Positions 12,026-46,223 of a DNA stretch of 47,070 bases are shown in pieces (positions within the stretch are counted from its first letter, which is position 1; every line of letters starts with the position of its first letter). This DNA comes from a bacterium (GTDB lineage: Bacteria > Patescibacteriota > Minisyncoccia > Phycocordibacterales > UBA1550). The stretch spans positions 1-47,070 of the forward strand of contig JAKANJ010000001.1 of NCBI GenBank assembly GCA_021823825.1, given 5' to 3'. The notes beneath the pieces are model-generated. The model was given only the letters and a program-made list of their open reading frames with translations. It had not been told where the DNA came from and made no database searches. A program made the position numbers and the translations under genes.

Positions 12026-12026
12026 A

Positions 12027-12257
12027 ATGAGGAAAATTATTGCTTCAGCCATAACATTTTACCAAAAGTTTATTTCCTTAGACACAGGTATTTTTTCCTA
12101 TAAAAAGGGGACGACCTGCGTTTTTTACCCAACCTGCTCTGAGTATACAAAACAGGGAGTTATTAAATACGGAGTTATTAAAGGGTCTTTTTTGGGCTTT
12201 AAAAGAATCATACGCTGTCACCCCTGGCAGAAAGAGCATATTGACCCACTCCCCTAG
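12027..12257 (+). CDS. yidD: Membrane protein insertion efficiency factor YidD
   Basis: CVFYPTCSEYTKQGVIKYG...RIIRCHPW matches the YidD signature. 76 aa. Confidence 0.87.
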   Translation: MRKIIASAITFYQKFISLDTGIFSYKKGTTCVFYPTCSEYTKQGVIKYGVIKGSFLGFKRIIRCHPWQKEHIDPLP

Positions 12258-12289
12258 TAAAAAGGGTGTATTTACGCTACTATAGCCGA

Positions 12290-13018
12290 ATGATTTTAAG
12301 TATTTTAAAAACAATTTTTTATCAGCCGCTCTATAACGGACTTATTATTGGCCTCTCTATTATCCCCGGAGCAAACGTGGGTGTTGTAGTGATTCTTTTA
12401 ACCCTTGTTGTGCGAAGTGTCCTTTTGCCCTTCTCCCATAAATCTGTTGTTTCCCAATCAAAAATGAGGCAAATTGCGCCTAAAATTGAAGGTATCAAGG
12501 AACAATACAAAGATGATAAACAGGAACAAGCAAGGAAAACCATGGAACTTTATAAGGAACATGGAGTAAATCCATTTTCTGGGTGTGTTGTTATTCTTAT
12601 ACAGCTACCCGTGCTCTTTTCTCTGTATTACGTATTCTCAAAGGGCCTCAGCACGCTTAATGGTGACATCCTCTACTCTTTTGTTCATGTCCCTGCGGTT
12701 GTTGACATGACGTTTTTTGGGATAATTCTTTCTGGGAAAAGTGTGTTACTTGCAGCCATCGCCGCAATTTCTCAGTATTTCCAAATAAAACTATCCGTTC
12801 CACCGGTGCCACCCTTGGCTCCAGGGGCAAAGCCAACCTTTAAAGATGATTTTGCGCGAAGCTTTAGTTCTCAAATGAAATACATGCTACCAATTATCGT
12901 TTTTGGTATTTCTTACTCAATTTCTGCCGCCGTGGCGCTTTATTGGGCAACAAGCAACACTTTCTCAGTCTTTCATGAGCTTTATGTAAAAAGGAAAGCA
13001 GAAGAAATTAAAGCGTAA
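12290..13018 (+). CDS. yidC: Membrane protein insertase YidC (short form)
   Basis: Multi-TM, with the KMRQIAPKIEGIKEQYKDDKQEQARKTMELYKEHGVNPFSGC loop typical of YidC/Oxa1. The ATG at 12290 is preferred over the GTG at 12266. Confidence 0.87.
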   Translation: MILSILKTIFYQPLYNGLIIGLSIIPGANVGVVVILLTLVVRSVLLPFSHKSVVSQSKMRQIAPKIEGIKEQYKDDKQEQARKTMELYKEHGVNPFSGCVVILIQLPVLFSLYYVFSKGLSTLNGDILYSFVHVPAVVDMTFFGIILSGKSVLLAAIAAISQYFQIKLSVPPVPPLAPGAKPTFKDDFARSFSSQMKYMLPIIVFGISYSISAAVALYWATSNTFSVFHELYVKRKAEEIKA

Positions 13019-14435: not shown

Positions 14436-14451
14436 GAATTAAATATGGTGT

Positions 14452-15378
14452 TTAATAGCAAACGTGCCAATGAGGGCTCGAACTATCTGTTGCTGGGGGG
14501 GTTCCTTCGGCAACGTAGGTGCCCGCGCCGGGGCCTGTTACATAATAATGATTTGCACTATCTACACCACAACCTTTGGCTGGAGCAGTGGGTGCTGGGG
14601 CATGGCTTTTAATATAGTTATCTAGTTGGGATGTGTGATGGAGGTCAACCATTGGCTGTCCTGGACCATGTGTTTGGTGTCCCCACTCTGTTCCACCAGT
14701 TATTGCTACGGAACAGTTGCAAGCTGTTGCGAGGGCTCTAACTCCATTAATGGCGCTCGTGGGGAGTTGGTACACACTTGTGCAATGTGACGGTATCGTG
14801 GTTTGGTCTGTTCTCCCTGTGCAGTCTGGCGTATATACCGAGACAACAGCGTTGTTGGGTAGCGGGGCAGTAAGAAGTGCTCGTTCACTGCTGTCGTCTG
14901 GCCAAGGACCAACAATGGTGCCATTTGCGCCCACACTAGTTCCTGTTGTGGAAGTGGTGCTAGCAAAATCCATTGGTGATAAACCGACAGGGGGCAACGC
15001 AAGATTAAAATTTACCAAATCGGGGTTAATTGAGTTGAGTATCAAATAAGAGGTAAGAACAAGAGCAAGGCCAATGAATGCATTTATCATCTTCTCTTTC
15101 GCGTCCATCTTTGCACTTGGAGAAATCCCCTTTGCAACATATTCTACCCCTGCAAGGATAGACATAATGACCGCAAGACCTGCACCAAGCGCGATAATAA
15201 GCTTTATCGCTCCCGCGAGATAGGTGGACATCGTGTAGGTGGACAGCGTGCTTCCCCCTGGCCCAATAGGTAGTGGTGCAAGGGGTGTATATGATGCGGA
15301 GATATCAGCGTGAGCGATAAAAGCACCTCCAATGAGGGCAACAAGTATTCCGCTAATTATTGGTGCAAATTTTTTCAT
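14452..15378 (-). CDS. T4SS pilin-like (VirB2/TrbC-type two-helix) protein fused to a putative LAS/M15-type zinc peptidase domain
   Basis: A signal peptide ends in AHA. Two hydrophobic helices (YLAGAIKLIIALGAGLAVIMSILAGV and INAFIGLALVLTSYLIL) flank the charged loop AKGISPSAKMDAKEKM. The Cys-rich C-terminal domain carries ITGGTEWGHQTHGPGQPMVDLHH and a terminal PHWHV. Confidence 0.6.
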   Translation of the reverse strand: MKKFAPIISGILVALIGGAFIAHADISASYTPLAPLPIGPGGSTLSTYTMSTYLAGAIKLIIALGAGLAVIMSILAGVEYVAKGISPSAKMDAKEKMINAFIGLALVLTSYLILNSINPDLVNFNLALPPVGLSPMDFASTTSTTGTSVGANGTIVGPWPDDSSERALLTAPLPNNAVVSVYTPDCTGRTDQTTIPSHCTSVYQLPTSAINGVRALATACNCSVAITGGTEWGHQTHGPGQPMVDLHHTSQLDNYIKSHAPAPTAPAKGCGVDSANHYYVTGPGAGTYVAEGTPPATDSSSPHWHVCY

Positions 15379-15387
15379 AACTTTTAA

Positions 15388-16533
15388 TTAAAATAATGTG
15401 TTACCTTGTGTGCTCTCGTTGTTACTAAAATAAATATGGAGAGACTGGCTCGCCTCCTGAAAAGATTTTTCAATATTACTCATAGAGAGTGAAATAAGTG
15501 AATCTCCTTGTGCCCCAGTATCGTTACGAAGGGTGATAGAACGACCATAGTTTTGTGTCGTTTGGCCGTTCATAGACCACGTGTAGCTGAGTGTTTGGGT
15601 GTCAGACTCATCGTTTGAGAAAAAATATGGCTCAGCAACAATCGTAATCTGTTTTTTAGAAAGAGTGTAATTCATTTGTATTGGGTTGTTATATAAAACC
15701 CCCAAAAGTGGGTCCTTCTCATAAAAAAGAATAAATGGTTGCGTTAAGGAAAGTGCGACTTGTGTTTCTGACTGAACACTATTATCAAGGGAGGAGACAA
15801 CAACACTCACATTCGCATCACTATATGGTTTTGGGCCCAAAAAAGAAAAGACATTTTTCCCATATCCAGAAGCGGAACTAACAACCGCTCCATCCTTTTT
15901 CCAAACATACACAAGGTTGCCGGCGCTCAGTGCGTTACCCGGTGTGTTGTTGTCTGGGATAGCGACAACCTGAACTTGCGCTTGTGGGGCGAGAAGGGCT
16001 TTGCCACGGTAAAACGGAGGCGTATAGGTGGTAGCTTGCCAAAGGGTCGTAATACCAATCGGTTGCCACGACAACTTTTTTGTCACATAGTCCCCCTCTG
16101 GGGTGCTAATAGAAACAGAAAGCCGTGTTACTACACCACTTGCGCCGTTTTGAAAACTAAATGTTCTTTGACCAACACCGCTCGATACAAGCTGTCCGTT
16201 GATTGACCACTTGAATGTTGCTTTATCAAGATCACTCAAATAACTATCAATAGTCACAGTTATTGTATCGTTAGGACCAGGATTTTCTGGGGTTGATTTA
16301 ATATCAAGGTAGTTACTGACAGGGTTTGAGCTTTGGGAAAGACTTGCCGACTGTACCGCAGAGCCCGCAAGTTGTTGCAACTGTGAGCTTATTAAGTCAT
16401 ATAGAGTGCTAGATAGGGGGGGTGTCGTGGTGGCGGTGTCCGTTGTTGTCGCTGTTTGTGCATGAACAAAAAACGGTATCACTAAAATTGCTACCAAGAG
16501 AATACGGTGTAATGCAGTGCGCAAATGATGCAT
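15388..16533 (-). CDS. Secreted protein with three internal beta-rich repeats, unknown function
   Basis: A signal peptide ends in VHAQ. The repeated motif appears as TFKWSINGQLVSSGVGQRTFSF, LVYVWKKDGAVVSSASGYGKNVFSF and LSYTWSMNGQTTQNYGRSITL. Confidence 0.7.
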   Translation of the reverse strand: MHHLRTALHRILLVAILVIPFFVHAQTATTTDTATTTPPLSSTLYDLISSQLQQLAGSAVQSASLSQSSNPVSNYLDIKSTPENPGPNDTITVTIDSYLSDLDKATFKWSINGQLVSSGVGQRTFSFQNGASGVVTRLSVSISTPEGDYVTKKLSWQPIGITTLWQATTYTPPFYRGKALLAPQAQVQVVAIPDNNTPGNALSAGNLVYVWKKDGAVVSSASGYGKNVFSFLGPKPYSDANVSVVVSSLDNSVQSETQVALSLTQPFILFYEKDPLLGVLYNNPIQMNYTLSKKQITIVAEPYFFSNDESDTQTLSYTWSMNGQTTQNYGRSITLRNDTGAQGDSLISLSMSNIEKSFQEASQSLHIYFSNNESTQGNTLF

Positions 16534-16586
16534 GTGATTACATTATAACGCGGAATATGTAAAGGCGCTATAGTGGAACAGTGAAA

Positions 16587-18410
16587 CTATTTAGTAGCCT
16601 GCTCCTCTGAAGCGAGAAGCTCACTTTTTGCTTTTTTTATAGCAAGAATTTGAGATGGATCAGAAGTAATAATTTGGTCTTCTGTGTAGGAGGCAATAGT
16701 GCGGATTGCCACATGTTTCATCCCTGCAAAAAAGATACCCTCCCCCACCCCAGACTCAAGTAAAAGAAACTTCTCTTCATCGGTCAAATTGAAGGCTTTT
16801 TGGACAGCATCTATCGCTGTAGGAGACTGTTTTAATAGAATTTGTATTGAAGAGTTTGTAATAATAGGAAGACCATAAGGGGAGCGGAGGAAGTCATTAA
16901 CATCTTGGGTTATTGTTGCAATTCCTAAGTAGTATTTACGACCTCGCTTTGCAAGAGAGTATAGGAACGCTGCAGTGTCCTCAGACTTCATCATCCACCA
17001 TGCCTCATCAACAACCAACAATCTCTTTCGCAGGGTGCGACGGATTGCATTCCAGATGAAGTGCGTCACCAGATACATTGCAACCGGCTTAAGGTCGTCT
17101 TCCATGTCACGAACCGAGAAAACGATAAATTTACGATTAATATCAACGTTTGAGGGCTGGTTGATAAACCCTGCCCATGACCCACGGGTGTATTTAGTGA
17201 GTTTCGTGAGAATTCCCTCGGCTCCATCCATACCTCCAAGTACAAGCTCAAAATCAGAAAGAAGTGGCGCTTCTATTGCGGTAAAATCAGAGTCAGGAGT
17301 TATATCTTTAAGCGCATAGGTTTCAGAAATTGCGCGATCAACAATCGCATCCTCTTCTGGGGTAAGGCCACCAAGCATTAAGCGGAAAAGACCGACAAGG
17401 TTTATGACGTTGGAGCGCAGGACATCACCAGGAGCTTCATCTTCTCGGGGAACCGGCAGGTCAAAGGGGTTGATGTGGTGTTCGGAGTTTAACGAAATGT
17501 TGAAGTAACGACCCCCCACAGCCTCTGCCATAGACTCATATTCTCGCTCGGGGTCAATAACAATAACATCGGTATCAAACATCAAACTACGAAGTATTTC
17601 GAGTTTAGTGGCGTAGGATTTTCCAGAACCAGACTTTGCAAACGTAACAGAATTGAAGTTTTCAAGAGAAAAACGATCAAAGAGGACAAGCGATGAGTTG
17701 TGGCGATTGATACCATAAAGGATTCCATGGTCTGAAGTGAGGTCAAATGAGACAAATGGGAAGAAACTTGAAAGTGGCTCCGAGTTTATTTTTTGGGTAA
17801 CGGTTATTTTGTCGTCATCCATCGGTATAATGCTCTGGAATGCCTCAACCTGTTGGAAAAGAGCTGGACGAATATAGATAAGACGGGACTCAAGCATTGA
17901 TTTAATCTCTGCCTCTGCATGACCAAGCTCCTCCTCAGAGTCAGCGTATAGCGAAATATACAACCCAACGTCAAACATTTTTTCTTGTGCTTGCTGGAGA
18001 CGATCGCGCAATGCTTCCAGGTCTCGATATGCGGCCTCAAGCATTGGATCCCTCACGAACCCCTTTCCTTCTCGTATATTAATCTGGCTCTGCACCTCAG
18101 CAACCTTTTTTTCAAACTTCTTCATTATTGCCGCGGTGTCAACGGGGTGAATATAAATTGAAATATCAAAAACTTTATCCAAATTGATAAGGGGAGAAAG
18201 CCAGTTGTCGGTAACTGTGCTTGGGTAGGAGGTGATAAAAAATGAACGTACAACCTTTTCTCCGAGGACAAGATCTTTTGAGGTAACTTTGACCGCCGAT
18301 GGTGCTATCACGTCATTTAAATTGAGCGCAGACTCAGCATACATCTCCTGTGGAAGAATAGGGATTACGTTTTCGTCGGTTGTTTTTTGTTTTTTGAAAA
18401 AATCAAACAT
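16587..18410 (-). CDS. virB4: VirB4/TrbE-family type IV secretion ATPase
   Basis: Walker A FAKSGSGKSYAT, Walker B RLLVVDEAWWMM, C-terminal ITQD motif GIATITQDVNDF. 607 aa. The genomic context includes PrgI-like and VirB6-like genes. Confidence 0.88.
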   Translation of the reverse strand: MFDFFKKQKTTDENVIPILPQEMYAESALNLNDVIAPSAVKVTSKDLVLGEKVVRSFFITSYPSTVTDNWLSPLINLDKVFDISIYIHPVDTAAIMKKFEKKVAEVQSQINIREGKGFVRDPMLEAAYRDLEALRDRLQQAQEKMFDVGLYISLYADSEEELGHAEAEIKSMLESRLIYIRPALFQQVEAFQSIIPMDDDKITVTQKINSEPLSSFFPFVSFDLTSDHGILYGINRHNSSLVLFDRFSLENFNSVTFAKSGSGKSYATKLEILRSLMFDTDVIVIDPEREYESMAEAVGGRYFNISLNSEHHINPFDLPVPREDEAPGDVLRSNVINLVGLFRLMLGGLTPEEDAIVDRAISETYALKDITPDSDFTAIEAPLLSDFELVLGGMDGAEGILTKLTKYTRGSWAGFINQPSNVDINRKFIVFSVRDMEDDLKPVAMYLVTHFIWNAIRRTLRKRLLVVDEAWWMMKSEDTAAFLYSLAKRGRKYYLGIATITQDVNDFLRSPYGLPIITNSSIQILLKQSPTAIDAVQKAFNLTDEEKFLLLESGVGEGIFFAGMKHVAIRTIASYTEDQIITSDPSQILAIKKAKSELLASEEQATK

Positions 18411-18415
18411 AAATT

Positions 18416-19069
18416 TTATTGTGCCACTACGTTTTTCTCTGCTTCACCCGGGTTAAAGAGGCGGTAGTAGAGCTCGGTAAGCTCTTCTGTGCCCAAAGGA
18501 ACAACGCGAACACCTGTTCGTGCAAGGCCTTGTTTGACGATACCAACACGCTGTTCAATTTGTGAACGCGCCTCCTCAAAAGCCTCAACCGCGCTTGGGG
18601 ACGGGACAGTGCTCTTTTCTTTTTTACCGCCCAAAAGACCCATAAAACCAGAAGATTTTTCACTGCTTGTTACTGATTTTGGTGGTGCATAGGGCACCAC
18701 AACAATAAAAAGCTTATTCATAATATTGGTTGACTGCGTAATCTTTTGAATAAAACTTATGTATTCATGGATCTGTATTTTGAGAAGTTCATTGAGCTCG
18801 GTTTGTAGGCGAGCCTCAAGAAGTTTTACATAAGGACGGATATCCAGCTTTCTTGACTGTATAAAAATTTGTGTGGAGAACTCAAGAGAATTCAAAAAAT
18901 TTTGAAACTGACCAAGAATGGCAACCTGTTCATCGTCGGACTTGAGAGCAAGGTTTATTGATGAAGCAAGAAGAAGTACGCGGATTGTGCCGTCTTTTAG
19001 GATAACGATTCCATCGCGGATTTCCTTGATTGGAACAAAATCTTGAGCTGCTTTTGATTTAATTGCCAT
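18416..19069 (-). CDS. Soluble T4SS-associated protein resembling a VirB4 N-terminal domain (tentative)
   Basis: 217 aa with no TM, 5 nt upstream of virB4. FVPIKEIRDGIVILKDGTIRVLLLASSINL...FLNSLEFSTQIFIQS follows the pattern seen at VirB4-type N-termini. Assignment is by resemblance only. Confidence 0.35.
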   Translation of the reverse strand: MAIKSKAAQDFVPIKEIRDGIVILKDGTIRVLLLASSINLALKSDDEQVAILGQFQNFLNSLEFSTQIFIQSRKLDIRPYVKLLEARLQTELNELLKIQIHEYISFIQKITQSTNIMNKLFIVVVPYAPPKSVTSSEKSSGFMGLLGGKKEKSTVPSPSAVEAFEEARSQIEQRVGIVKQGLARTGVRVVPLGTEELTELYYRLFNPGEAEKNVVAQ

Positions 19070-19071
19070 AA

Positions 19072-19512
19072 TTATAATTGTTTACCTTTTGGTTCAACTG
19101 TCGGGCTACCTCCGCCAACATCTAAACCAAGTGATTTATTGGAAAGATTTCCAAGAGATAGTGATGTTGGGCTTTGTGGAACCTGGGAAGGAAGCCCTTT
19201 CCCGGCGCCGGGAGATGTTTCTTTTGTCGTTTTTTTCCACGTGTAGAGCTTACTGCCAATATAGTAATTGAAGCCAGCCTCAAGAACACCAATAAACGGC
19301 TTTCCAAGCTTCTCTTTTGGGTAAAATGCAAGCGCCCAAGTGAGGAAACCCAGCCCAAAAATAATCGGCGCGGAGATAAAAATCCAAGGAATGAGTCGGT
19401 AAATAAAATATGCGCCAGCAATACCCCCTGCGACGTAGATAGCTTGCTTTAAGGTGAGTGGTCCGAAAAGTTTGTCCTCAATATCAATATATTGTGGAAT
19501 GTGAAATTGCAT
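19072..19512 (-). CDS. PrgI-family / VirB3-like small membrane protein
   Basis: MQFHIPQYIDIEDKLFGPLTLKQAIYVAGG is followed by two TM helices, the characteristic PrgI-family opening. It lies immediately upstream of the VirB4 module. Confidence 0.7.
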   Translation of the reverse strand: MQFHIPQYIDIEDKLFGPLTLKQAIYVAGGIAGAYFIYRLIPWIFISAPIIFGLGFLTWALAFYPKEKLGKPFIGVLEAGFNYYIGSKLYTWKKTTKETSPGAGKGLPSQVPQSPTSLSLGNLSNKSLGLDVGGGSPTVEPKGKQL

Positions 19513-19620
19513 ATGAATAGTATAACGTATTTATCAAACTCAGGGAACGGTAAACTCTAGTTGTGATAGACCGAAAAACTATTTTTGCCCACTTTTGGTA
19601 GACACTTTGTTTCGCCAACA

Positions 19621-20409
19621 CTATTCAATCGGCTCACGGTAAGGGTCCTTCCTTGGCACGACAGGTATTGCAACCTCCTGTGCTGTACTCGTTGCTGGGG
19701 ATGGTGTTGCTGGTGCTTGTGGTGTAGAAGGCTGAACGGGGTTGATTGTAGGAGGGACAAACGAGGTTTCTGGGGCGACCGCCGTACTTGAGGCGACTGG
19801 CTCAAGTACGAGACTGTCTGGATCCGCTTGCCCCGAGGTGAATACCTGCTTCATTTTTTCCTCAAAAGGATGTGGCTCTATTTTGGGCTGTTGTGGTTCG
19901 GGTGTGTATACCCTGTTCCCAACCTTTTCTTCTATTGGAGGAATAAGGGGTTCTACCTCGGGCGCTATGGGCAAATTTTCTGGAGCGACGACGTTTTTAA
20001 ACATTGCTGGCGCTTCAGGCTCTACGGGAACGTTCTTTTCTGTGGTTTCTGGTGTAGGAGCAGGCTGTTCTTCGCTGCTATTTGTCTCATTTTCAAAAAA
20101 TGAGACAAGATCGGCACGTATTGAGTTAAAAATTTTCTGCTCTGTTGCATTAACAACTGCTTCAAGCACAGCTCCTTTTAACCCAAGTTCCTCTTGTAAG
20201 GCGGAGCCGAATTCATCAACCGGGACCAAACCAGCAAGAACAAGGGCAACTTCTCTTTTAAAGTTTGAAACCTGTTCTTCGTCTAAATTGTACATTGAAG
20301 CAATTGCGTCAAGGTCTTCATTCCAGTTTGGTGTAGCAAGAAACGCAACAACACTTTTAGGAAGTTTAAGAAGTTGCTCTTGAAGAATTGTTAATGTTTC
20401 GTTATCCAT
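19621..20409 (-). CDS. Acidic, proline-rich protein with a folded N-terminal ~100-aa domain, unknown function
   Basis: 262 aa, no signal peptide or TM. The C-terminal 150 aa are P/E/V-rich low complexity. It lies inside the operon. Confidence 0.65.
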   Translation of the reverse strand: MDNETLTILQEQLLKLPKSVVAFLATPNWNEDLDAIASMYNLDEEQVSNFKREVALVLAGLVPVDEFGSALQEELGLKGAVLEAVVNATEQKIFNSIRADLVSFFENETNSSEEQPAPTPETTEKNVPVEPEAPAMFKNVVAPENLPIAPEVEPLIPPIEEKVGNRVYTPEPQQPKIEPHPFEEKMKQVFTSGQADPDSLVLEPVASSTAVAPETSFVPPTINPVQPSTPQAPATPSPATSTAQEVAIPVVPRKDPYREPIE

Positions 20410-20427
20410 GAGGTATTTTTGTGTAAT

Positions 20428-23196
20428 TTATGGTGTCGCTTGTTTCTTTGCCGCCTCAGCCGCTTTCTTTGCCACTTCAGCCTCATCAGCCTCCCTTTTT
20501 GCAGCTATTTTTTGTATCGCTTTAGTCATACTCTCTTCTTCTTTTTCTTCTTTTGCTTTTTTTGCTTTAGCGCTCGCGTTTCTGATCTTGTTTGCTCTAT
20601 TTAATGCAGTTGTTCTTCCTGATGCTGTCCAATTATCACCAGAATCTTTGTGGCGTGCGTAGACCTCACGACGAGCCGCATTTTCTTCAATCAACTCATT
20701 CTTTGCTTTTTTAAGATCAGCGTCTTTTATCTTCTTTATTTCAGCTGTCTCTGCGCGCCGCTTTGCTGCCGCCGCAAGGTCTATTCCCTCAGCAGAAGCT
20801 GAGTGAGTTGAGATTGCAGAGTCCACATTATTTTTTGCCGTTGTGCGTGCCATTGTAGCATCGGATGCAGTTTTTTTCGCTACAGCCTCTGCCCTTTCCG
20901 CATCAGCCTGACCGATCTTTTTTCCTGGGTAGTTAGGATCTTCAAGCGCGTTTGGGTTTGAGGTTATTTTCTTCAGATTTTCAGAAGCTATTGCCAAAGC
21001 TGCGGCTGCGGCTGTTTCCTTTTCAACAAGCTCCTTTTCGGCTTTCTGAGCCGCGACAACGGCTTTACCTGTCTCACTCCCTGCCGCCTTCTCCTCGGCC
21101 TTCTTTAGGTTTTGCTCAGCGTCATAATCTGCACGGTTTGCTAGGTTTGCTTCGTGCTCTTTTTGTTCAATTGCTTTCTGTGGACGCTCCATGAGTTTTG
21201 CCATGTGCTCATTCTTCTTTTCCCTGTCCTCATTCCACTTCTTCCCTTGAGAGGTGTATGTCATCTCACTACCCTTACCTAGGCCCAATGTTTTACCAAC
21301 AGCTCCGCCCCCGATATTGCGCACATCAAAGGTTGCATTCTGTGCCTTGTCTGCGGCAAGAAGCCCAAGCTTGCTAACACCGCGGGTTATTTTGTTTGAG
21401 CTCAACGCTCCCTCCTGGAGCTTCCCACTTGCGGCAAGCATTGATCCAGCTTGACCAGCGGCAAGTGATGCTCCGCCAGACGCGACAGCCACGCCTGCAC
21501 CGATTGCTTTTGAAGCATACTCTGATGCCATTTTGCCAAAGTCGCCACTCATTTTTTCAGCAACCTTCAGCGCTTTCTGCAGCGCAAGGAATATTATTAT
21601 TGCAATAGTGATTGGGACAACAAGCTTATCAAAAATGAAAGTTGAGGTACTTGATGCATCTCCCACAACACCGCTCAAAATACCGCCACCCGCAGAAACA
21701 CCTTGCATAACGAGGTAAATCAAAAAGAGGAAGACCGGCGCAACAAAGGCTTGATCTAGGAGTGTGTTTGACCACCAATTAAAAATACTCCCTTTCGGTA
21801 AGGCAATAGATATAAAAGCAAAGGGTGAAAGAATCATCAAGAACCAAAAAGCAACAAGACGACCAAGGAAAAGCAATGTTCCTTTAAAAAAGATGTATGC
21901 CACCGTGAGGCTTACAAAAGCGGCAACTAAGAAAATAATAAGTGCATCAAGTGGGCTCGTGAGGGCTTTTGCACCTGCTTCACCGAGGAATTTTTGCGGC
22001 TGGAATTGGGCTGCAATTCCACTCGCTATTCCGCGTTGTTGTACATCGCTTGTACTTGTTTTAATTCCTGATGTGTTGGTTGTGCCCATGCTGTTGTACA
22101 CCCCAACCGCAAGAACATTCCCGGCATCTATGACCACCTTTGTAAAAAATAGACTGAAGTTTATCAAAAGAGCAATGACAATGACGTTTATCACTGTCTT
22201 TTTCCAGTTGCCTAACCCCAGCATTGTCTGTATCCCCGTATAAAGGAGAATAAAGATAAAAATCATGTTGGAGAAATTCCTGAGAAGAACCCAGAGCGTT
22301 GATACGAACGGTTTATTTACAAATGCACTACTAATGCTCAAGGACAATGCCATGTCAAAGAAGTAAACAGCGCCCATGAGCAACCAGGAGGATGGAACAT
22401 AAAAAGCATAGTACGCACCGATGGTGAGACAAGCGGGGACATCAAAACCATCAGTTATTCCTTTCCAGCATTGGAGTTTTCCAAGGTTTGGATTTTGGCC
22501 CGCGGGAGGTGCTGCTGTGGTTACGCTTACATTTCCTGTTCCTGTTTCACCTGTCGGGCTTGTGCATGTCAGGCTGTATGTTCCCGCTTGTGGCGGTTTG
22601 ATCGTCCATGTACCACTATATTCTTTGGGGCCTGCCCAATTCCCCGGACCCGAAGCAAGACAACCATTAGGTGCCTTTGTATTTGAGGCTGTCCATGAAA
22701 TATTGATTTGCTGAGTAGAATTGTCGGCAGCGAGTTGTTGTGGTGTTGCGGTGAGAGAAACAACGGGCTGTGTCGCCGAAGTTGGCATATTGACGTTTAC
22801 GTACAAATAAGTGCTTGGGCTAATACTGAAGGTGTCGGGGTTAATGCACTTAATACCGAAAACGACAGGGTTTGCCCAAGTAGAGTCAATGGTAACCGGC
22901 ACTGTCTGTTCACCCGAAGGAGGACGAGAGAGGGGTGTATTTGGATCAATGTTGCCTCCTGATATTAAACACTGTGATGGAGCATTAGATGCCCAGCGGA
23001 GGGTAACGCTATCACCATTATTAATCGTCGTTGTGTCAGTGTTGTCGTTCGGTGTTGATGAGGTTGCGGGCGCAACTGTTGCAGATGTGATCACAACTTT
23101 ATCAGCTGCGTGGGCAAAGGGTGCCATTACAAAGTTAACTCCAAAGAACGTAATTCCCGCTAGTGCAATTAGTGTTGTTTTAAGAATTTTGTTCAT
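20428..23196 (-). CDS. VirB6/TrbL-like polytopic membrane protein with N-terminal extracellular beta domains and a long A/K/E-rich C-terminal tail
   Basis: The likely start is ATG 23196 (MNKILKTTLIALAGITFFGVNFVMAPFAHA signal); the ORF is open to 23280. About 250 aa are beta-rich with repeated W/T/C motifs. About 8 TM helices follow, then a roughly 330-aa charged coiled-coil-like tail. Confidence 0.6.
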   Translation of the reverse strand: MNKILKTTLIALAGITFFGVNFVMAPFAHAADKVVITSATVAPATSSTPNDNTDTTTINNGDSVTLRWASNAPSQCLISGGNIDPNTPLSRPPSGEQTVPVTIDSTWANPVVFGIKCINPDTFSISPSTYLYVNVNMPTSATQPVVSLTATPQQLAADNSTQQINISWTASNTKAPNGCLASGPGNWAGPKEYSGTWTIKPPQAGTYSLTCTSPTGETGTGNVSVTTAAPPAGQNPNLGKLQCWKGITDGFDVPACLTIGAYYAFYVPSSWLLMGAVYFFDMALSLSISSAFVNKPFVSTLWVLLRNFSNMIFIFILLYTGIQTMLGLGNWKKTVINVIVIALLINFSLFFTKVVIDAGNVLAVGVYNSMGTTNTSGIKTSTSDVQQRGIASGIAAQFQPQKFLGEAGAKALTSPLDALIIFLVAAFVSLTVAYIFFKGTLLFLGRLVAFWFLMILSPFAFISIALPKGSIFNWWSNTLLDQAFVAPVFLFLIYLVMQGVSAGGGILSGVVGDASSTSTFIFDKLVVPITIAIIIFLALQKALKVAEKMSGDFGKMASEYASKAIGAGVAVASGGASLAAGQAGSMLAASGKLQEGALSSNKITRGVSKLGLLAADKAQNATFDVRNIGGGAVGKTLGLGKGSEMTYTSQGKKWNEDREKKNEHMAKLMERPQKAIEQKEHEANLANRADYDAEQNLKKAEEKAAGSETGKAVVAAQKAEKELVEKETAAAAALAIASENLKKITSNPNALEDPNYPGKKIGQADAERAEAVAKKTASDATMARTTAKNNVDSAISTHSASAEGIDLAAAAKRRAETAEIKKIKDADLKKAKNELIEENAARREVYARHKDSGDNWTASGRTTALNRANKIRNASAKAKKAKEEKEEESMTKAIQKIAAKREADEAEVAKKAAEAAKKQATP

Positions 23197-23325
23197 CCCG
23201 TTAGAAATAGGCCGCGATTGAAGAGCGACATTGTGTTCTATTTCTTTTGTGTTGCTTCGACTTTTCATTTTTGTGTTCATCGCGATTTCTAACGGGATTC
23301 ATTCGGATAAATTAAAACACGGTAG

Positions 23326-24432
23326 CTACTTAAAGACCCCCCGCACGGTTTGCTGTACGAGCTGGGTCAAAAGTGCAGTGATAACCTTGTTCATATCATC
23401 AGCAAAACCTAAACGATCCATATCAACACCAAGTGTTTTTGTAAGTTGGTTGGAGATGACATTTCCTGGGGTTGTAATGGGGCAGTATTTCTTTTCAAGT
23501 GCCGAAATAACTTCAGGGGTATATTTTTTAGGATCTGGACGACCTGTTGCATCAAGAGCAATTGCGTTGGGATCTTTTGGTTTATCTTTTATGTTTACAT
23601 AGCTACATTTTTTAGGGTCATTATCAACAAGGTCAATAAAGCCATGCGACCATGCGAGTTGCTGTGCCTGAAGAGCTGCTTGTTGTTGCTCTCGTTGATT
23701 CAATTCGTCGCCTGTAAGCACCGCGACACCAAATGGGTTCCCCGCGTCATTCAAGGCGTTTGCGAAAGAATCCCACCCACCATTTGTGAAGTCATTATAA
23801 AAGGCGCCCGCATCACCTGTGCCAAACGGACACTTGACTTGGGATGCAAACATTTGGCTGTTGTCCGAGGATAAATCAACAGCATTGCTCAACGTGACGG
23901 TAAAATTGGGAACAAAGTTACATGCCCCAATGCTTTTAATTTGTTGAGCGAGCTCGGTTGCGACTGAGTTAGCTATATCAGCAAAAACCTTTTTAGGACT
24001 GATTGCAAATGATGGGCTACCATGGAATCCTCCTTGAATCCACTTAATAGTGCTATTTGTCATTTCTGTCAGCGTGCACTGCGCAAGAACATATGCAATA
24101 TTATTTAAAACAGATTTTGTTGGATCTACTGCAGTGATAATACCTAAATTCGAGCCGGCAACAGTTGCCGCCGGGATATTAGTAACTGGAACGTTGCCTA
24201 CAGCAGCTGCTGTCGCTGCAGCAGCTGCTGTCGCAGCCGCAGCTGCCGCAACTTGTGCATCTGTGGATGTGAGTTTTAATGTGTCGACAAGCCCTGCCGC
24301 AGTCCCTGTTGTAATACAAACTGCGAATGATGCATTGTCAGCGTGTGCGCGAGGTGTACCAGTGAGTGCTATGTAAACAGCAAAAGCGGATATCACAACA
24401 GTCTTTTGGAGTGTTTTGAAATTATAATTCAT
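23326..24432 (-). CDS. Secreted protein with poly-Ala tract, unknown function
   Basis: A signal peptide ends in AHA. It carries the tract AAAAATAAAAATAAAV and 4 Cys. No family recognised. Confidence 0.7.
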   Translation of the reverse strand: MNYNFKTLQKTVVISAFAVYIALTGTPRAHADNASFAVCITTGTAAGLVDTLKLTSTDAQVAAAAAATAAAAATAAAVGNVPVTNIPAATVAGSNLGIITAVDPTKSVLNNIAYVLAQCTLTEMTNSTIKWIQGGFHGSPSFAISPKKVFADIANSVATELAQQIKSIGACNFVPNFTVTLSNAVDLSSDNSQMFASQVKCPFGTGDAGAFYNDFTNGGWDSFANALNDAGNPFGVAVLTGDELNQREQQQAALQAQQLAWSHGFIDLVDNDPKKCSYVNIKDKPKDPNAIALDATGRPDPKKYTPEVISALEKKYCPITTPGNVISNQLTKTLGVDMDRLGFADDMNKVITALLTQLVQQTVRGVFK

Positions 24433-24441
24433 ACTTTGTAA

Positions 24442-25260
24442 TTAATTTGGCAGCACATAATTTTTATATTCATTTTGAGCAACAAGGGTATCTTGTGCTG
24501 CCTCCTGGTACTGTTTAAAGCCCGTAAGACCTTTAACGGGGTCATCAAATATCCCCTCCATTATTTTTAAACCATTTTGCATGTCTGAATAATCCTGAAC
24601 AACCCGCAAGTGAATTGACGCGAGAGAGGATGGGGTACTAACGGCAAGGATTCCTTTAATTAATGTTTCGTAGTGAGCAATGTTTTGCTCAAGTTTGGAA
24701 ATTCTCAATGCGCTGTTGGTGCCAGGGTCTTCTAATGCGACCTGGAGATCCCCATTTGTCTGTGAGGAAACAAAATTACTAATGAGTCTCGTCATTGCTA
24801 CGGTGTAGTTAATGACCGCGGTGCGACTGTTGTCTTCGGTGATATTGAGGTCACTGACTTGATACTGTTTCCCATACGAGACGGGAATACTATTTGCTAG
24901 TACTTGCGCTTGAGATAACGCATCTGCGTCGCTCAATGTGGTTGTTCCTGTATTTTGTACAAATGCAGCGTAGTTGTTGATGAGCTGTCTCGCGAGGAGG
25001 TCTGTTGTCGTTGTTCCAAGTGGTGCGTCGGGCAGTGTTGATGAATCATTTGCAACCGTTGAAATTGGAGCTGTTTGTAATGTGTCGTTGTTTTGAGTAC
25101 TACTAACAACTTGTAGGGTGTTTGCGTTACTTGCCACAGAGTTTGCAGATTCGTGTGGTGTTGCATTAAATAAATTTTTATTTAATGCAAGATAAATGAT
25201 GCCTATGCTGAGGAGGACAGCGAGGAAGATAGAAAAGATTTTTTTTGATTGCTGGTTCAT
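24442..25260 (-). CDS. N-terminally anchored extracytoplasmic protein, unknown function (first gene of the operon)
   Basis: TM helix IFSIFLAVLLSIGIIYLAL followed by a T/S/N-rich region and a helical C-terminal half. Confidence 0.7.
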   Translation of the reverse strand: MNQQSKKIFSIFLAVLLSIGIIYLALNKNLFNATPHESANSVASNANTLQVVSSTQNNDTLQTAPISTVANDSSTLPDAPLGTTTTDLLARQLINNYAAFVQNTGTTTLSDADALSQAQVLANSIPVSYGKQYQVSDLNITEDNSRTAVINYTVAMTRLISNFVSSQTNGDLQVALEDPGTNSALRISKLEQNIAHYETLIKGILAVSTPSSLASIHLRVVQDYSDMQNGLKIMEGIFDDPVKGLTGFKQYQEAAQDTLVAQNEYKNYVLPN

Positions 25261-43576: not shown

Positions 43577-43652
43577 CGGGGTGTGGTGTAACGGCTAACA
43601 TTCCTGTTTTGGGTACAGGCGACTCCGGGTTCGAATCCCGGCACCCCGACCA
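43577..43652 (+). tRNA. tRNA-Pro (anticodon UGG) with genomically encoded CCA
   Basis: Hand-folded cloverleaf. Acceptor CGGGGTG/CACCCCG (C1-G72), anticodon stem CCTGT/ACAGG with loop TT-TGG-GT (G37), T-arm CCGGG-TTCGAAT-CCCGG, discriminator A, then CCA at 43650-43652. Confidence 0.92.
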
Positions 43653-43716
43653 TGATTTTAATTGGTATCGGGGGGTATTTGACAAAATGTTGAATATCCC
43701 TGCGAACCCCTCGTCG

Positions 43717-43788
43717 TTCAACGGATAGGACGCAAGCTTCCGAAGCCTGTGACGCAGGTTCGATTCCTGCCGAGGGGACAATAGCAAA
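43717..43788 (+). tRNA. tRNA-Arg (anticodon CCG), no encoded CCA
   Basis: Hand-folded cloverleaf. Acceptor CCCCTCG/CGAGGGG, D-arm GTTC/GGAC with GG in the loop, anticodon stem CAAGC/GCCTG (one A-C mismatch) with loop TT-CCG-AA, T-arm GCAGG-TTCGATT-CCTGC, discriminator A. Confidence 0.82.
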
Positions 43789-43790
43789 AC

Positions 43791-43835
43791 TCCAGCAAGG
43801 TTAAGCCTTGCTGGAGTTTTGCTATATCGCGCCCC
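43791..43835 (+). repeat. 20-bp perfect hairpin immediately 3' of tRNA-Arg(CCG)
   Basis: atagcaaaactccagcaagg ttaag ccttgctggagttttgctat. Confidence 0.85.
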
Positions 43836-43842
43836 CTCGGCA

Positions 43843-43953
43843 GGAATCGAACCGTAGGCGACTGATTTTCTTGGTCTCAACAGAGACCTTAGAAAATCGG
43901 AGTTCCGACTGAAAGGAGGGGCGATTCCTGCCGAGGGGACAATGACAAAAACA
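43843..43953 (+). repeat. tRNA-end module C1: inverted copy and direct copy of the tRNA-Arg(CCG) 3' end flanking a structured core
   Basis: 43843-43863 (cccctcggcaggaatcgaacc) is the reverse complement of tRNA bases 43767-43787. 43932-43953 is identical to tRNA 43771-43792. The two arms form a 17-bp helix around a core that holds the hairpin 43874-43908. Confidence 0.85.
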
Positions 43954-43954
43954 C

Positions 43955-43989
43955 CAGATTTGCTCCTGGTGCTTTTTGTTATACGAGTT
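43955..43989 (+). terminator. Terminator-like hairpin after module C1 (a diverged version of the 43791-43835 hairpin)
   Basis: acaaaaacaccag atttgctc ctggtgctttttgt, with a T-run in and after the 3' arm. Confidence 0.55.
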
Positions 43990-44001
43990 ATCCCTCAGTA
44001 G

Positions 44002-44109
44002 GAATCGAACCGTAGGCGACTGATTTTCTTGGTCTCAACAGAGACCTTAGAAAATCGGAGTTCCGACTGAAAGGAGGGGCGATTCCTGCCAAGGGTACAA
44101 AATATTCAA
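44002..44109 (+). repeat. tRNA-end module C2 (second tandem copy, arms decayed)
   Basis: The 91-nt core 44010-44100 is identical to 43852-43942 (period 158 nt). The left arm is ccctcagtaggaatcgaacc. The right arm cgattcctgccaagggtaca matches the tRNA 3' end at 18/20. Confidence 0.85.
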
Positions 44110-44237
44110 ATCATGGTGCGGTGACACCCTTTCTGTGAAATTTAGTGACCTTCTTGATTAATGATCACCATTACGGTACTCTTCAAAATAGAAATAAATT
44201 GAGTCAATGGCGGCTCGAGGATACCAAGGGGGATAAA

Positions 44238-44540
44238 ATGCACATACCTCAGGTACGGAAATACCTTTGTGTAGTCTGCAAGAAAAATGAAATTGTTGAG
44301 CATCGGACAGAGCATACCTATGAAGGCGATGTTCCCGACCAGTGTAACTGCGATCTGAGCACCCATGATGGGTACCACGTTTCTGGTGGGAAGTTGCTGA
44401 AACAGCGTCAGGAGGGCTGCTGGACTTCTCTCAGTACAAACATGCTGGCGGTTGGTCCTGGTGGTATTTGCGAGGACTGCCTGAAAAATGAAATCGTAAG
44501 AGCTCTTTTGCCACATCTTGGTTTCAATCCCTGGACATGA
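44238..44540 (+). CDS. Small Cys-rich (zinc-ribbon-like) protein, unknown function
   Basis: The ATG at 44238 has AAGGGGG 6 nt upstream. Duplicated motif CVVCKKNEIV and CEDCLKNEIV, plus CNC. A terminator at 44551-44586 follows on the same strand. Confidence 0.6.
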   Translation: MHIPQVRKYLCVVCKKNEIVEHRTEHTYEGDVPDQCNCDLSTHDGYHVSGGKLLKQRQEGCWTSLSTNMLAVGPGGICEDCLKNEIVRALLPHLGFNPWT

Positions 44541-44550
44541 CAACAGACAG

Positions 44551-44586
44551 AAAGCCGCACGGCAGTAGTATGTGCGGCTTTTTCTT
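44551..44586 (+). terminator. Intrinsic terminator after the Cys-rich ORF
   Basis: AAAGCCGCACggcagtagtatGTGCGGCTTTttcttg. Confidence 0.8.
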
Positions 44587-44645
44587 GTTTGTTTTTCCAC
44601 ATTGGCGTAATGATTATTTTCTTTGTTGGTGTATACTGGTACTAC

Positions 44646-46223
44646 ATGAAACTAGGGACAAAGATAAATCTTATTCTTATCGGTGTTGTCGCAGTGACTC
44701 TCACAATCGGTTTTTGGGTAATTGTCGGAATAGAAGCAGGGAATATTGAGAATCAAGTAGTTGGTGACACCAACACGGTCACAAAATTGGTCCAAGAAGA
44801 TGCATCTCGTGTACTCGCTCAGACACAGGCAAAAACAGGAATAACGCCAGATGAAACAGCATATTTGAAAAAAATTGTTGACGATGCTTTTTTGTTTGGA
44901 AAGACTGACCCAAAAGCTGCTTATGGTTTTTTCCACGATATTATTATTTTTGACAAGAATCTTTCTGTTCTTGTAAATAGCGGGGATACAAAAGAAAATT
45001 TTTCAAACGATGATCCAATTTACGTTAAAATTCGCCAAGATGTTTTAAGCGGGGCAAAGGCAAACGCTGAGTACGAACGTCTCAATGACGGTAACGACAA
45101 CAGTGACGTTCTTGTGTACGTCAGTCCACTTATAATTCACGATAGCAAAGGGGACCGCATTGTAGGGGTCATTGAAACTCATGCAATGAAAAATGCATAT
45201 CAAGATCGAGTAAATGCGTTGCGCGCGCGCATGCTAGGTGTTGGGGTTGTCTTTACTGCTGTTCTTGTTATCGCACTAGCAATCATTCTTGAGAGGCAAG
45301 TTGTTGGTCCGATTCGCAGATACTCACTTGTAGCACAAAAAGTTGCTGCAGGGGATCTTAAACAGCAGGTTGAGCACACTTCTAATGACGAAATTGGTAA
45401 ATTCGGTGAGGTTTTTAACCTCATGGTGAAAAACTTGCGTGAGCTTGACCAAATGAAATCTGATTTTGTTTCTGTGGCCGCACATCAGCTACGCACCCCT
45501 CTTTCCGGACTAAACTGGGTAATCAAGTTATTTATTGGGGGAGATCTCGGGCCAACTACGGAATATCAAAAGAAAATGCTTGACCGGGCATATGAGGCCG
45601 AACAAAAAATGATAACTTTGGTAAACGATCTCTTGAATGTGTCACGTATAGAAAATGGCAAATTTGGGTATAAGTTTGAGAAAAACGACCTTGCACTCTT
45701 ACTTAAAACACTTGTATCAAATGTTGATCTTGCCGCAAAGGAGCACAATATTGAAGTGAAGCTTGAACACAAGGGCGAACCATTTCCCGAATTTGTTTTT
45801 GATTCCGAAAAGCTTCTCATGGCGCTTCAAAATATTACAGACAATGCTCTCAAATACACGCTTCCTGGCGGGAGTGTAACAATCACAACAGAAAAAGCTG
45901 GTGACTATGCGGAGATAAAAATAAGCGATACCGGAGTTGGTATTCCAAAAGCGGAAATTCCTAAACTGTTTTCTAAGTTTTTCCGGGCATCAAACGTTAT
46001 TCACCTACAGACGGACGGTTCTGGCCTTGGTCTCTTTATTTCAAAAAATATTATTATTCAGCATGGAGGTCAGGTCTGGGTAGAGTCTGAGGAAGGGAAG
46101 GGCACAACAATAACCGTGGAGGTACCAACCAAAGAGTCCCTACTCCCCAAACAGCAAGAGGAGGAGGGGACGGCCTGGAAAACACAGGTGAGCCAGAGCG
46201 GAGAAGCAACGTGGAAGGTCTAG
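44646..46223 (+). CDS. Sensor histidine kinase (TM - periplasmic-type sensor - TM - HAMP - HisKA - HATPase)
   Basis: H-box SVAAHQLRTPLS, N-box DNALKYT, G1 DTGVGI, G2 GSGLGL, and a HAMP-like GPIRRYSLVAQKVAAGDL. The ATG at 44646 (MKLGTKINLILIG) is preferred; alternatives are ATG 44610 and TTG 44589. Confidence 0.9.
   Translation: MKLGTKINLILIGVVAVTLTIGFWVIVGIEAGNIENQVVGDTNTVTKLVQEDASRVLAQTQAKTGITPDETAYLKKIVDDAFLFGKTDPKAAYGFFHDIIIFDKNLSVLVNSGDTKENFSNDDPIYVKIRQDVLSGAKANAEYERLNDGNDNSDVLVYVSPLIIHDSKGDRIVGVIETHAMKNAYQDRVNALRARMLGVGVVFTAVLVIALAIILERQVVGPIRRYSLVAQKVAAGDLKQQVEHTSNDEIGKFGEVFNLMVKNLRELDQMKSDFVSVAAHQLRTPLSGLNWVIKLFIGGDLGPTTEYQKKMLDRAYEAEQKMITLVNDLLNVSRIENGKFGYKFEKNDLALLLKTLVSNVDLAAKEHNIEVKLEHKGEPFPEFVFDSEKLLMALQNITDNALKYTLPGGSVTITTEKAGDYAEIKISDTGVGIPKAEIPKLFSKFFRASNVIHLQTDGSGLGLFISKNIIIQHGGQVWVESEEGKGTTITVEVPTKESLLPKQQEEEGTAWKTQVSQSGEATWKV

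Follow-up and report, generated by a model that had tools for sequence, protein, structure and literature searches.

Behind a tRNA-Arg(CCG) gene in a bacterial contig lies a short tandem array in which every unit pairs an inverted with a direct copy of the tRNA 3' end, which raises the question of what such an array is and how it arises. The initial annotation of this DNA named three candidates: a miniature mobile element that targets tRNA genes, the relics of serial integration and excision, and a co-transcribed RNA that imitates the acceptor/T-arm helix or competes with it. These are weighed below against the architecture of the array, its relatives in other genomes and its likeness to known systems. 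The window is the whole stretch of DNA that was analysed, 47,070 nucleotides in length.

Architecture of the array behind tRNA-Arg(CCG)

The internal coordinates of the initial annotation proved to be uniformly 10 nt too high, and the features of the array lie at the following positions.

43707..43779, + strand: tRNA-Arg(CCG) (ARAGORN; Rfam tRNA model, 56.9 bits)
43781..43825, + strand: spacer hairpin 1, perfect 20-bp arms and 5-nt loop (inverted-repeat search)
43833..43853, + strand: L1, inverted copy of tRNA-Arg(CCG) 43757-43777, 21/21
43842..43932, + strand: 91-nt block (inner L, core and inner R), exactly the same as 44000-44090
43864..43898, + strand: core hairpin, copy 1, GATTTTCTTGGTCTCaacaGAGACCTTAGAAAATC
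43922..43943, + strand: R1 arm, direct copy of 43761-43782 (tRNA 3' end plus 4 nt of trailer), 22/22
43945..43982, + strand: spacer hairpin 2, terminator-like (stem 43952-43971 plus T-run)
43992..44011, + strand: L2, inverted copy, 18/20 complementary
44022..44056, + strand: core hairpin, copy 2, identical to copy 1
44080..44099, + strand: R2 arm, direct copy, 18/20 (sequence reading)

Apart from the shift, the layout first described was recovered: a 20-bp hairpin behind the tRNA, then two units with a period of 158 nt, each of which opens with the inverted and closes with the direct copy of the tRNA 3' end. The tRNA gene is without an encoded CCA, and its 3' end is the template of every arm. 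L1 covers the T-loop, the 3' strand of the T-stem and the 3' strand of the acceptor stem, and forms a single long palindrome with spacer hairpin 1 and the tRNA 3' end. Spacer hairpin 1 has a GC-rich inner stem followed by TTTTGCTAT and is thus terminator-like; spacer hairpin 2 looks like its diverged homologue, with a compensatory change in the stem. That each direct copy is followed by its own hairpin holds for the R1 arm but not for R2, which is followed by a weak 4-bp stem only. The L1:R1-arm helix of 17 bp (43833-43849 with 43922-43938) could also be retained, as could the 91-nt identity between units; the helix, however, encloses 72 nt rather than a 91-nt core, and the identical block takes in the inner halves of the arms.

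All differences between units 1 and 2 fall outside the 91-nt block, with the spacers and outer arms strongly diverged. The acceptor part of L2 reads CTGAGGG, an allele of tRNA-Arg(CCG) found in related species, whereas the tRNA of the window has CCGAGGG. The arms of unit 2 carry uncompensated changes, and R2, which a pattern scan located at 44080-44096 with 2 mismatches in 17, is both the farthest from the tRNA and the most decayed copy, the copy next to the tRNA being perfect.

The window holds 5 instances of the 17-nt arm pattern, where 0.06 would be expected, and 3 of the core hairpin, where chance predicts 0; counts so far above expectation exclude chance as their source. In folding stability the unit far exceeds its shuffles, with z-scores of -9.0 for the + strand and -12.7 for the - strand. 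Tandem Repeats Finder at its thresholds did not report the array because its spacers are too divergent. Neither ARAGORN nor the Rfam tRNA and tmRNA models gave a tRNA or tmRNA call on either strand of 43780-44110, and a tRNA, tmRNA or tRNA-like gene was ruled out by the lack of a cloverleaf or tmRNA model match on both strands. No promoter was found before L in the window.

Sister modules and gene neighbourhood

Such modules trail 3 of the 4 tRNAs in the window, and the arms match each module's own tRNA. The sister modules, which the initial annotation overlooked along with the E. coli parallel described below, lie 1.2-2.2 kb upstream of the Arg(CCG) array, with the following features (type 1 is defined below).

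41580..41882, + strand: tRNA-Arg(TCG) sister module
41580-41652, + strand: tRNA-Arg(TCG) gene
41648-41793: short-arm type-1 element behind tRNA-Arg(TCG); second copy truncated, 1.6 copies in total
42346..42698, + strand: tRNA-Gly(GCC) sister module
42346-42417, + strand: tRNA-Gly(GCC) gene
42417-42462: terminator hairpin of the tRNA-Gly module
42471-42487: L arm of the tRNA-Gly module, 17/17 inverted copy
42506-42585: sub-module within the type-1 core of the tRNA-Gly module (core about 160 nt)
42645-42698: direct copy in the tRNA-Gly module, 54 nt, consisting of the tRNA 3' end and the whole terminator

The module behind tRNA-Arg(TCG) is built on 86-nt repeats at 41657-41742 and 41797-41882, with a period of 140 nt. 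Behind tRNA-Gly(GCC) the core hairpin is found a third time, in the opposite orientation; GATTTTCTTGGTCTCaacaGAGACCTTAGAAAATC is a reduced copy of a sub-module of about 65 nt that is reversed in the tRNA-Gly element. The neighbours of the array encode a CCA-adding enzyme, a YraN-family protein, a histidine kinase and an Xer-like recombinase, with dnaA and dnaN 30 kb away. The gene for the Xer-like tyrosine recombinase lies 2.3 kb from the array, is syntenic in relatives and probably has a housekeeping role.

Occurrence in related genomes

The closest homologues of the CCA enzyme came from Candidatus Nomurabacteria, Yonathbacteria and Paceibacterota metagenome-assembled genomes, so that the window is a piece of chromosome from a bacterium of the CPR/Patescibacteria (Paceibacteria), an ultra-small group. 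Relatives were sampled as 80 species-level loci around the orthologous CCA gene. Together with the window, its strain variants and metagenome matches, these loci yielded a set of 244 tRNAs. A direct copy of the tRNA's own 3' end was found within 450 nt downstream of 58 of the 244, compared with 2 upstream, and an inverted copy downstream of 21, compared with 1 upstream. When model matches and 3'-end repeats were pooled, 102 of 211 tRNAs in related genomes (48%) bore an element; the tRNAs concerned are those for Arg, Gly, Pro, Lys and Leu.

In relatives, the tRNA is followed by a spacer, the inverted 3' strand of the acceptor stem and often an inserted hairpin, H1; then come the inverted T-stem 3' strand and T-loop, the core, and a direct copy that runs from the T-loop to the discriminator. 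The spacer may be a terminator, an AT-rich hairpin or a stretch of about 15 nt, and a conserved AT-rich spacer between tRNA and element was also observed in relatives. There are at least three to four core types with a common arm logic.

A recurrence of the core beside other tRNAs, for which the initial annotation had proposed a search, was found both in the window and across the bacterial class. The exact core-hairpin pattern gave no match in GTDB representative genomes, and a scan of metagenomes gave 13 matches, 12 of which are chance occurrences inside unrelated coding repeats. The only true relative among the 13 is a locus from Hainich groundwater (L018), where the element stands behind a tRNA-Lys; with this locus and the third copy in the window, the core is not unique to the Arg(CCG) array. 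Searches of Rfam at permissive thresholds returned tRNAs and spurious miRNA-hairpin matches, with no family for these elements, and nothing relevant was found in the literature on tRNA-trailer elements of the CPR. The family is large and, as far as these searches reach, undescribed.

Covariance and strand specificity of the type-1 core

A seed alignment of 18 elements with the commonest of the core types gave a consensus of three helices, H1, P2 and P3, in which 20 of 22 pairs covary, and a covariance model (model R1) was built on it. Type-1 elements are defined by these helices around the conserved junctions CGAAAGGCGGAG / GAGCCGGGG / GTGACC. In 840 kb of sequence, model R1 detected 106 elements, distributed over 53 of the 80 species loci, the window and L018. 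Of these, 86 are situated at most 120 nt downstream of a tRNA on the same strand, 7 follow another element and 5 sit at locus edges, and none of the 106 is opposite in strand to its tRNA. Both sister modules match the model, that of tRNA-Arg(TCG) with 41.3 bits (E=3e-10) and that of tRNA-Gly at 42450-42656 with 24.1 bits (E=7e-5).

In the 106-sequence alignment, which was fitted to model R1, all 22 of 22 pairs covary. Paired cells make up 95.4%, compared with 61.5% in shuffles and 32-43% with slid partners, and 618 cells are changed on both sides, compared with 163 in shuffles; besides the slid controls, an independent MAFFT-based result concurs. Pairs of the G-T/T-G kind outnumber those of the A-C/C-A kind by 61 to 25, and 33 of 36 cases retain the G-U at the base of P3. 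This excess and the kept G-U identify the folded strand as the tRNA-sense strand. The modules are a conserved, strand-specific fold that is tied to tRNA 3' trailers and clamped by arms derived from the tRNA.

The two Arg(CCG) units gave no match to model R1 and have only the arm logic and the sub-module hairpin in common with the family. They are reduced, species-specific members of it and, with their few relatives, could be decaying copies.

Specificity of the arms

The arms of type-1 elements are specific to the tRNA that they follow. R agrees with its own tRNA in at least 10 of 12 positions in 45 of 83 elements, whereas the control with other tRNAs gave 4%; L carries a 7/7 inverted acceptor strand in 32 of 83, against a control of 1.2%. 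The arms also track changes of the tRNA between orthologues, as illustrated by TATCCGC, which occurs in the tRNA, L and R of two loci (L031 and L062). The L:R helix reproduces the stacked acceptor and T stems of the module's own tRNA, with the same discriminator base at its end. In about 40% of elements, the short-arm variants, L and R copy just the last bases of the tRNA and the trailer, and P1 takes in the discriminator as well in some elements, so that strict mimicry of the tRNA end is not universal.

The direct repeat usually ends at the end of the tRNA and begins at T-loop position 56 or in the T-stem, its length ranging from about 6 to 54 nt. L is contiguous with the spacer palindrome in every case. 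One-sided decay was looked for as a sign of which arm, R or L, is the primary copy, and all combinations occur.

Turnover between strains and species

A comparison of strains, which the initial annotation had suggested, found the number of units to be polymorphic, with breakpoints in the repeats or the core. Among sister strains with an identical YraN protein, two loci have two units (L001 and L006). Another (L002) has spacer 2 and unit 2 only, with its breakpoint in the tRNA-end direct repeat, and L005 is a chimera of unit 1 on the left and unit 2 on the right, with its breakpoint in the core. Unit number changes by recombination in the repeats. Whole-unit tandem duplicates that are 100% identical are present in L073.

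At the species level, four orthologous tRNAs were compared between the window and a species whose CCA enzyme is 84% identical to that of the window (L105).

tRNA-Pro: element present in L105; none in the window
tRNA-Arg(CCG): no arms in L105; two units in the window
tRNA-Gly: element without the sub-module of about 65 nt in L105; element with the sub-module in the window
tRNA-Arg(TCG): long arms and H1 in L105; short arms in the window

Depending on the element, the sub-module stands in one orientation or the other. Within a genome, cores that follow different tRNAs can reach 74-79% identity, and the best core match was to the same tRNA type in another genome in 49 cases, as against 8 within the same genome.

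Comparison with the RtT repeats of Escherichia coli and other systems

The tyrT locus of E. coli contains repeats of 178 bp, each with 19 nt of the tRNA-Tyr 3' end. In MG1655 the region was found to be annotated with tyrT, tyrV, rttR (small RNA RttR) and tpr and to hold 3-4 copies with a period of 178. Besides the 19-nt direct copy, each repeat has a 22-nt inverted copy (19/22, 86%) of the tRNA-Tyr T-arm and acceptor. The RF00391 (RtT) model gave 4 matches in E. coli, and its closing helix is formed by the inverted copy (GGGGAAGGA) with the direct copy (AUCCUUCCCC, then CACCACCA). The annotated 3' end of rttR is the CCA of the direct copy. RttR has been detected experimentally. According to the literature, it is the product of a single repeat unit in the tyrT operon; it has been connected with the processing of the tyrT transcript, possibly also with the stringent response, and has no known mode of action.

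The Paceibacteria modules are like RtT in lying directly 3' of a tRNA, on the same strand and in tandem (both sides were checked), and in a closing helix made of an inverted and a direct copy of the upstream tRNA 3' end. In addition, the loop motif GAGCG-N3-GCGAG of the internal hairpins of RtT is common in Paceibacteria cores. There are also differences. RF00391 gave no match in window positions 41000-45000 at E<=10, in L027 at E<=5 or in 12 related loci at the gathering score. RtT is confined to one enterobacterial tRNA operon, whereas the Paceibacteria family is found at about half of the sampled tRNAs. Unlike RtT, the Paceibacteria cores have a hairpin inserted in the L arm and a three-way junction and come in several types, and the direct copy in the modules has no encoded CCA. 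The E. coli units are 95% identical over their full length, whereas the Arg(CCG) units share the 91-nt block only. The link to RtT is one of analogy, in that the modules may work like RtT without being RtT.

A similar layout is seen in the E. coli rrn small RNAs rrA, rrB and rrF, where a small RNA gene lies between dual terminators at the end of a stable-RNA operon (PMC8144298), as in the order of tRNA, terminator, module and terminator in the window. In contrast to the modules, these RNAs contain no copies of the upstream RNA 3' end, form no arrays and are unrelated in sequence.

Proposed working of the modules

The reading that we favour, with about even confidence, is that the modules are a class-wide, RtT-like family of tRNA trailers in the Paceibacteria (CPR), co-transcribed with the tRNA and clamped by a helix that resembles the acceptor and T stems. 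Each module would be transcribed with its tRNA, either within an operon of tRNA genes or when transcription runs on through the spacer hairpin. The L:R clamp would then allow tRNA-end maturation, that is, 3' trimming and CCA addition and possibly RNase P on the 5' side, to free a separate, stable small RNA. L could pair either with the tRNA's 3' half or with R, and R would in this way prevent L from trapping the tRNA. The arrays themselves grow, shrink and swap cores through recombination among copies of the tRNA 3' end and among cores, as the strain variants show.

Folding of the transcript from the tRNA through the R1 arm is consistent with such a competition. The minimum free energy structure (-134.1 kcal/mol) joins L1 to the tRNA 3' half and the R1 arm to the 5' acceptor strand of the tRNA, and the alternative, with a native tRNA and an L1:R1-arm helix, is about 4 kcal/mol worse (-130.0 kcal/mol); on these energies, L and R are a competing pair. 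Co-transcription seems unavoidable at the 49 of 83 elements that have no terminator-like hairpin between tRNA and element. At all three element-bearing tRNAs of the window such a hairpin precedes the element, so transcription there depends on read-through, as it does for the rrn small RNAs between dual terminators in E. coli. Of the explanations first offered, the co-transcribed mimic or competitor of the acceptor/T-arm helix comes nearest to the one preferred here: the RtT analogue and the near-isoenergetic pairings speak for it, and co-transcription and release are the parts that we infer.

Further points count against this RNA reading, besides the read-through needed in the window, the missing match of the two Arg(CCG) units to model R1, the short-arm variants and the missing match to RF00391. 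Processing needs just a generic helix, and the tRNA-specific sequence of the arms goes beyond it. Gain and loss as fast as that seen at 84% protein identity would be more usual for selfish DNA than for an RNA that the cell needs.

Alternative explanations

Fast turnover is also part of the evidence for the mobile element of the initial annotation, an unlikely explanation but a live and serious rival. In its present form it holds that the modules are non-autonomous DNA directed to tRNA 3' ends through site-specific recombination. A small circle of spacer, L, core and R would recombine through R with the identical tRNA 3' end, and the order of tRNA, spacer, L, core and R that is observed would follow from such integration. 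In single-stranded DNA the L:R fold would present the target in duplex form, in the manner of integron attC or CTX-phage attP sites, with the core as the structure recognised by a recombinase and the arrays as serial insertions, the newest beside the tRNA. Integron attC and CTX-phage attP sites have an imperfect inverted repeat that closes a variable structure and fold strand-specifically, and arrays are ordered from a fixed entry point. The modules may resemble them in inverted-repeat closure, strand-specific fold and ordered arrays; unlike attC, which conserves structure only, they have arms that copy a tRNA and a conserved core sequence.

Several features of the array suit this explanation. 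The copy proximal to the tRNA is perfect and the distal one decayed, the identical 91-nt block sits within much more divergent spacers and outer arms, and L2 bears an allele foreign to the present tRNA. Strains are polymorphic for one or two units, orthologous tRNAs in related species have different element types or none, similar cores (up to 79% identity) stand behind different tRNAs of a genome, and the sub-module of about 65 nt has been inserted in both orientations. Strand-specific folding suits single-stranded DNA as well as RNA. A tyrosine recombinase gene of the Xer type is at hand 2.3 kb away; it is, however, probably the housekeeping gene noted above, the window yielded no dedicated recombinase or transposase, and no integron integrase or attC core sites were identified there. 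An element of such a kind has no known precedent, its L:R stem is without the T arm's 5' half, which integrases that target tRNAs usually employ, and direct repeats of about 6 to 54 nt are unusual for a single recombination system. The excess of orthologues among the best core matches (49 against 8 in the same genome) suggests much vertical descent, homologous recombination between repeats explains the strain variants equally well, and the counterpart in E. coli has a fixed place at tyrT and produces an RNA. Distinctly unlikely, in our judgement, is the wider proposal that an unrecognised class of small elements has spread to about half of the tRNA genes of a CPR class, with the L:R fold as a recombination or homing site at the level of single-stranded DNA or RNA and with the tyrT/RtT repeats of E. 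coli as a domesticated or stranded relative.

There is a slim chance that the modules are a functionless by-product. Template switching would extend the terminator palindrome into the tRNA and so create L, unequal crossing-over would duplicate the tRNA 3' end and terminator in tandem, and the arrays would drift. One long inverted repeat, with L always contiguous with the spacer palindrome, is what such an origin would leave, and the identical whole-unit duplicates in L073, the inclusion of the entire terminator in the tRNA-Gly direct repeat and the uncompensated changes in the unit 2 arms agree with it. It cannot account, however, for a conserved, covarying multi-helix core across 53 of 80 species-level genomes, for several core types with a common arm logic, or for arms that track tRNA changes in orthologues (L031 and L062). 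It could apply to the two reduced Arg(CCG) units alone if these are untranscribed and absent from other populations.

It is scarcely credible that the modules are fused attL/attR remnants left by the deletion of full-size phages or islands whose attB was the tRNA 3' end. An intact tRNA gene with a direct repeat of its 3' end downstream is the classic footprint of integration, integration-derived tRNA-gene fragments are common in prokaryotes (PMC9897764), and some relatives have a plain 33-nt fragment of the tRNA-Pro 3' end that resembles an att relic. Unlike attL/attR scars, however, the modules have no integrase or cargo, contain a conserved, covarying insert of 100-250 nt, form arrays with a period of 140-180 nt and carry an inverted copy, which is unexpected in such a scar. 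No large insert, integrase or full-size element was found between the repeats in the 80 loci and strain variants examined. The initial annotation was right to doubt a simple att scar, and its integration and excision relics are disfavoured on the same evidence.

Other candidates were also rejected. A phage origin was discarded, as the 5-kb region and the modules have no similarity to 50,697 phage records or to IMG/VR contigs. A MITE does not fit arms that vary with the neighbouring tRNA (Arg, Gly, Pro, Lys) and a "duplication" that consists of 6-54 nt of the tRNA end. An aminoacylatable minihelix serving as amino-acid donor was set aside because the synthetases for Arg, Pro and Lys rely on the anticodon or D-loop and because H1 keeps one and the same loop whichever tRNA it follows. 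Against a retroelement primer-binding site, L complements CCA only where this is encoded in the genome, as expected of a DNA palindrome, and there is no reverse transcriptase nearby. An IS110 bridge RNA, a TnpB/IscB guide RNA and a retron were dismissed for want of an associated ORF.

Implications

If the RtT-like reading is true, a large, strongly covarying family of RNA (or single-stranded DNA) has been overlooked in a poorly understood group of bacteria, one that has no entry in Rfam and takes up about half of the tRNA trailers sampled. In practical terms, its repeats break metagenome assemblies at tRNA arrays and yield tRNA-fragment signals that are liable to be misread as integration scars. 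The enigmatic RtT repeats of E. coli would gain many structurally parallel examples, and the purpose of joining antisense and sense copies of a tRNA 3' end, be it as a processing handle, a control of tRNA folding or a homing device, becomes testable.

Modules behind tRNA-Gly(GCC) and tRNA-Arg(TCG)

Modules with arms that match the 3' end of the adjacent tRNA were also found behind two other tRNA genes of the window. The direct repeat of the tRNA-Gly(GCC) module is 54 nt long and includes the entire terminator, and the tRNA-Arg(TCG) gene is followed by 1.6 tandem copies of its element, with identical 86-nt repeats at a period of 140 nt.

Sister modules
41580–41882: module of tRNA-Arg(TCG), arms matching the tRNA-Arg(TCG) 3' end
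42346–42698: module of tRNA-Gly(GCC), arms matching the tRNA-Gly(GCC) 3' end

In the second unit behind tRNA-Arg(CCG), the acceptor part of the inverted arm (L2, 43992–44011) corresponds to CTGAGGG rather than to the CCGAGGG of the window. CTGAGGG is the tRNA-Arg(CCG) allele of related species (L023 and L062) and also occurs in a tRNA-Lys (comparison locus L042).

A sub-module of ~65 nt, consisting of GGCCACGATAAATCTAGGGCACTGC, a long hairpin and AAATCGGGAG, was found within different elements and in both orientations. The orthologous Gly element of a related species (L105/L023) is without this sub-module, which looks like a nested insertion in a hairpin loop.

Sites of the ~65-nt sub-module
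Window: 42506–42585
Window: 43853–43906
Window: 44011–44064
Comparison locus L018: 1080–1145
Comparison locus L034: 2729–2760
Comparison locus L033: 5721–5748

Spacers and variant arrangements in relatives

Behind several different tRNAs, an AT-rich spacer, AAAAATAACGRARCAAATGC-RRR-GCATTTG..GTATATTTTTGT, is conserved between the tRNA and the inverted (L) arm (comparison loci L026, L028, L041, L042, L043, L049 and L055). It carries TATATT ~6 nt ahead of L, so that a promoter is one possible reading and a structured spacer another.

In several relatives, tRNA-Pro(TGG) is followed by a two-hairpin spacer of 89–111 nt, after which 33 nt from the 3' part of the tRNA, with the whole T arm, are repeated. 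No inverted copy was present in these downstream regions, and the arrangement looks closer to a classic tRNA-fragment repeat.

tRNA-Pro(TGG) loci with the variant arrangement in their downstream regions
Related locus L034: 4086–4157
Related locus L039: 4046–4117
Related locus L071: 3710–3781
Related locus L072: 4457–4528

Genomic context of the tRNA array

The region at 8000–12300 holds dnaN, dnaA and yidC; GC content falls there to 0.33–0.36, and the cumulative GC skew reaches its minimum. Replication probably starts in this region, and the tRNA array runs in the direction of replication. A minus-strand cluster at 13077–25260 is a type-IV-secretion-like or conjugation-like apparatus, in which several large ORFs gave no Pfam matches. 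At 44142–44600, two ORFs overlap on opposite strands, neither with a Pfam match.

Landmarks of the window
8622–9722, minus strand: dnaN
9957–11333, minus strand: dnaA
12266–13018, plus strand: yidC
14452–15378, minus strand: T4SS-pilin-like protein
16587–18410, minus strand: VirB4/TraG-like ATPase
20428–23280, minus strand: 950-aa ORF, one of the large ORFs without a Pfam match
44145–44540, plus strand: 131-aa Cys-rich ORF
Within 44142–44600, minus strand: 152-aa ORF overlapping the 131-aa ORF; of the two, the 152-aa ORF is called in public assemblies

A CCA-adding enzyme gene is the divergent neighbour of tRNA genes without an encoded CCA (40031–41500 and the four tRNAs); among these four, only tRNA-Pro encodes CCA. 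This synteny is kept in many, not all, of the 80 related loci, several of which have tRNA-Arg(TCG) and the enzyme gene on the same strand.

Contigs of sister strains and species end inside or beside the tRNA array (L003, L004, L007, L008 and L103), which suggests that the repeats break assemblies. Because L004 diverges from the window directly after tRNA-Pro, it may be a further structural variant.

Comparison with the E. coli tyrT repeats

The tyrT repeat of E. coli contains the textbook 19-nt direct copy of the tRNA-Tyr 3' end. In every 178-bp repeat, the T-arm and acceptor strand of tRNA-Tyr were found to be present in inverted form as well, as a 22-nt copy (86%), and the closing helix of RF00391 is this inverted copy paired with the direct copy.

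Inverted tRNA-Tyr copies in L102 (E. coli MG1655, 1286300–1288000)
508–529
686–707
864–885
1161–1182

Two window modules share a 13-nt hairpin-loop motif, TGAGCGACGGCGA (41755–41767 and 42610–42622), on stems that differ with compensating changes. Similar loops (GAGCGAAGCGAAG and the like) recur in the family and in spacer hairpins, and the related loop of E. coli RtT is GAGCGCCAGCGAG.
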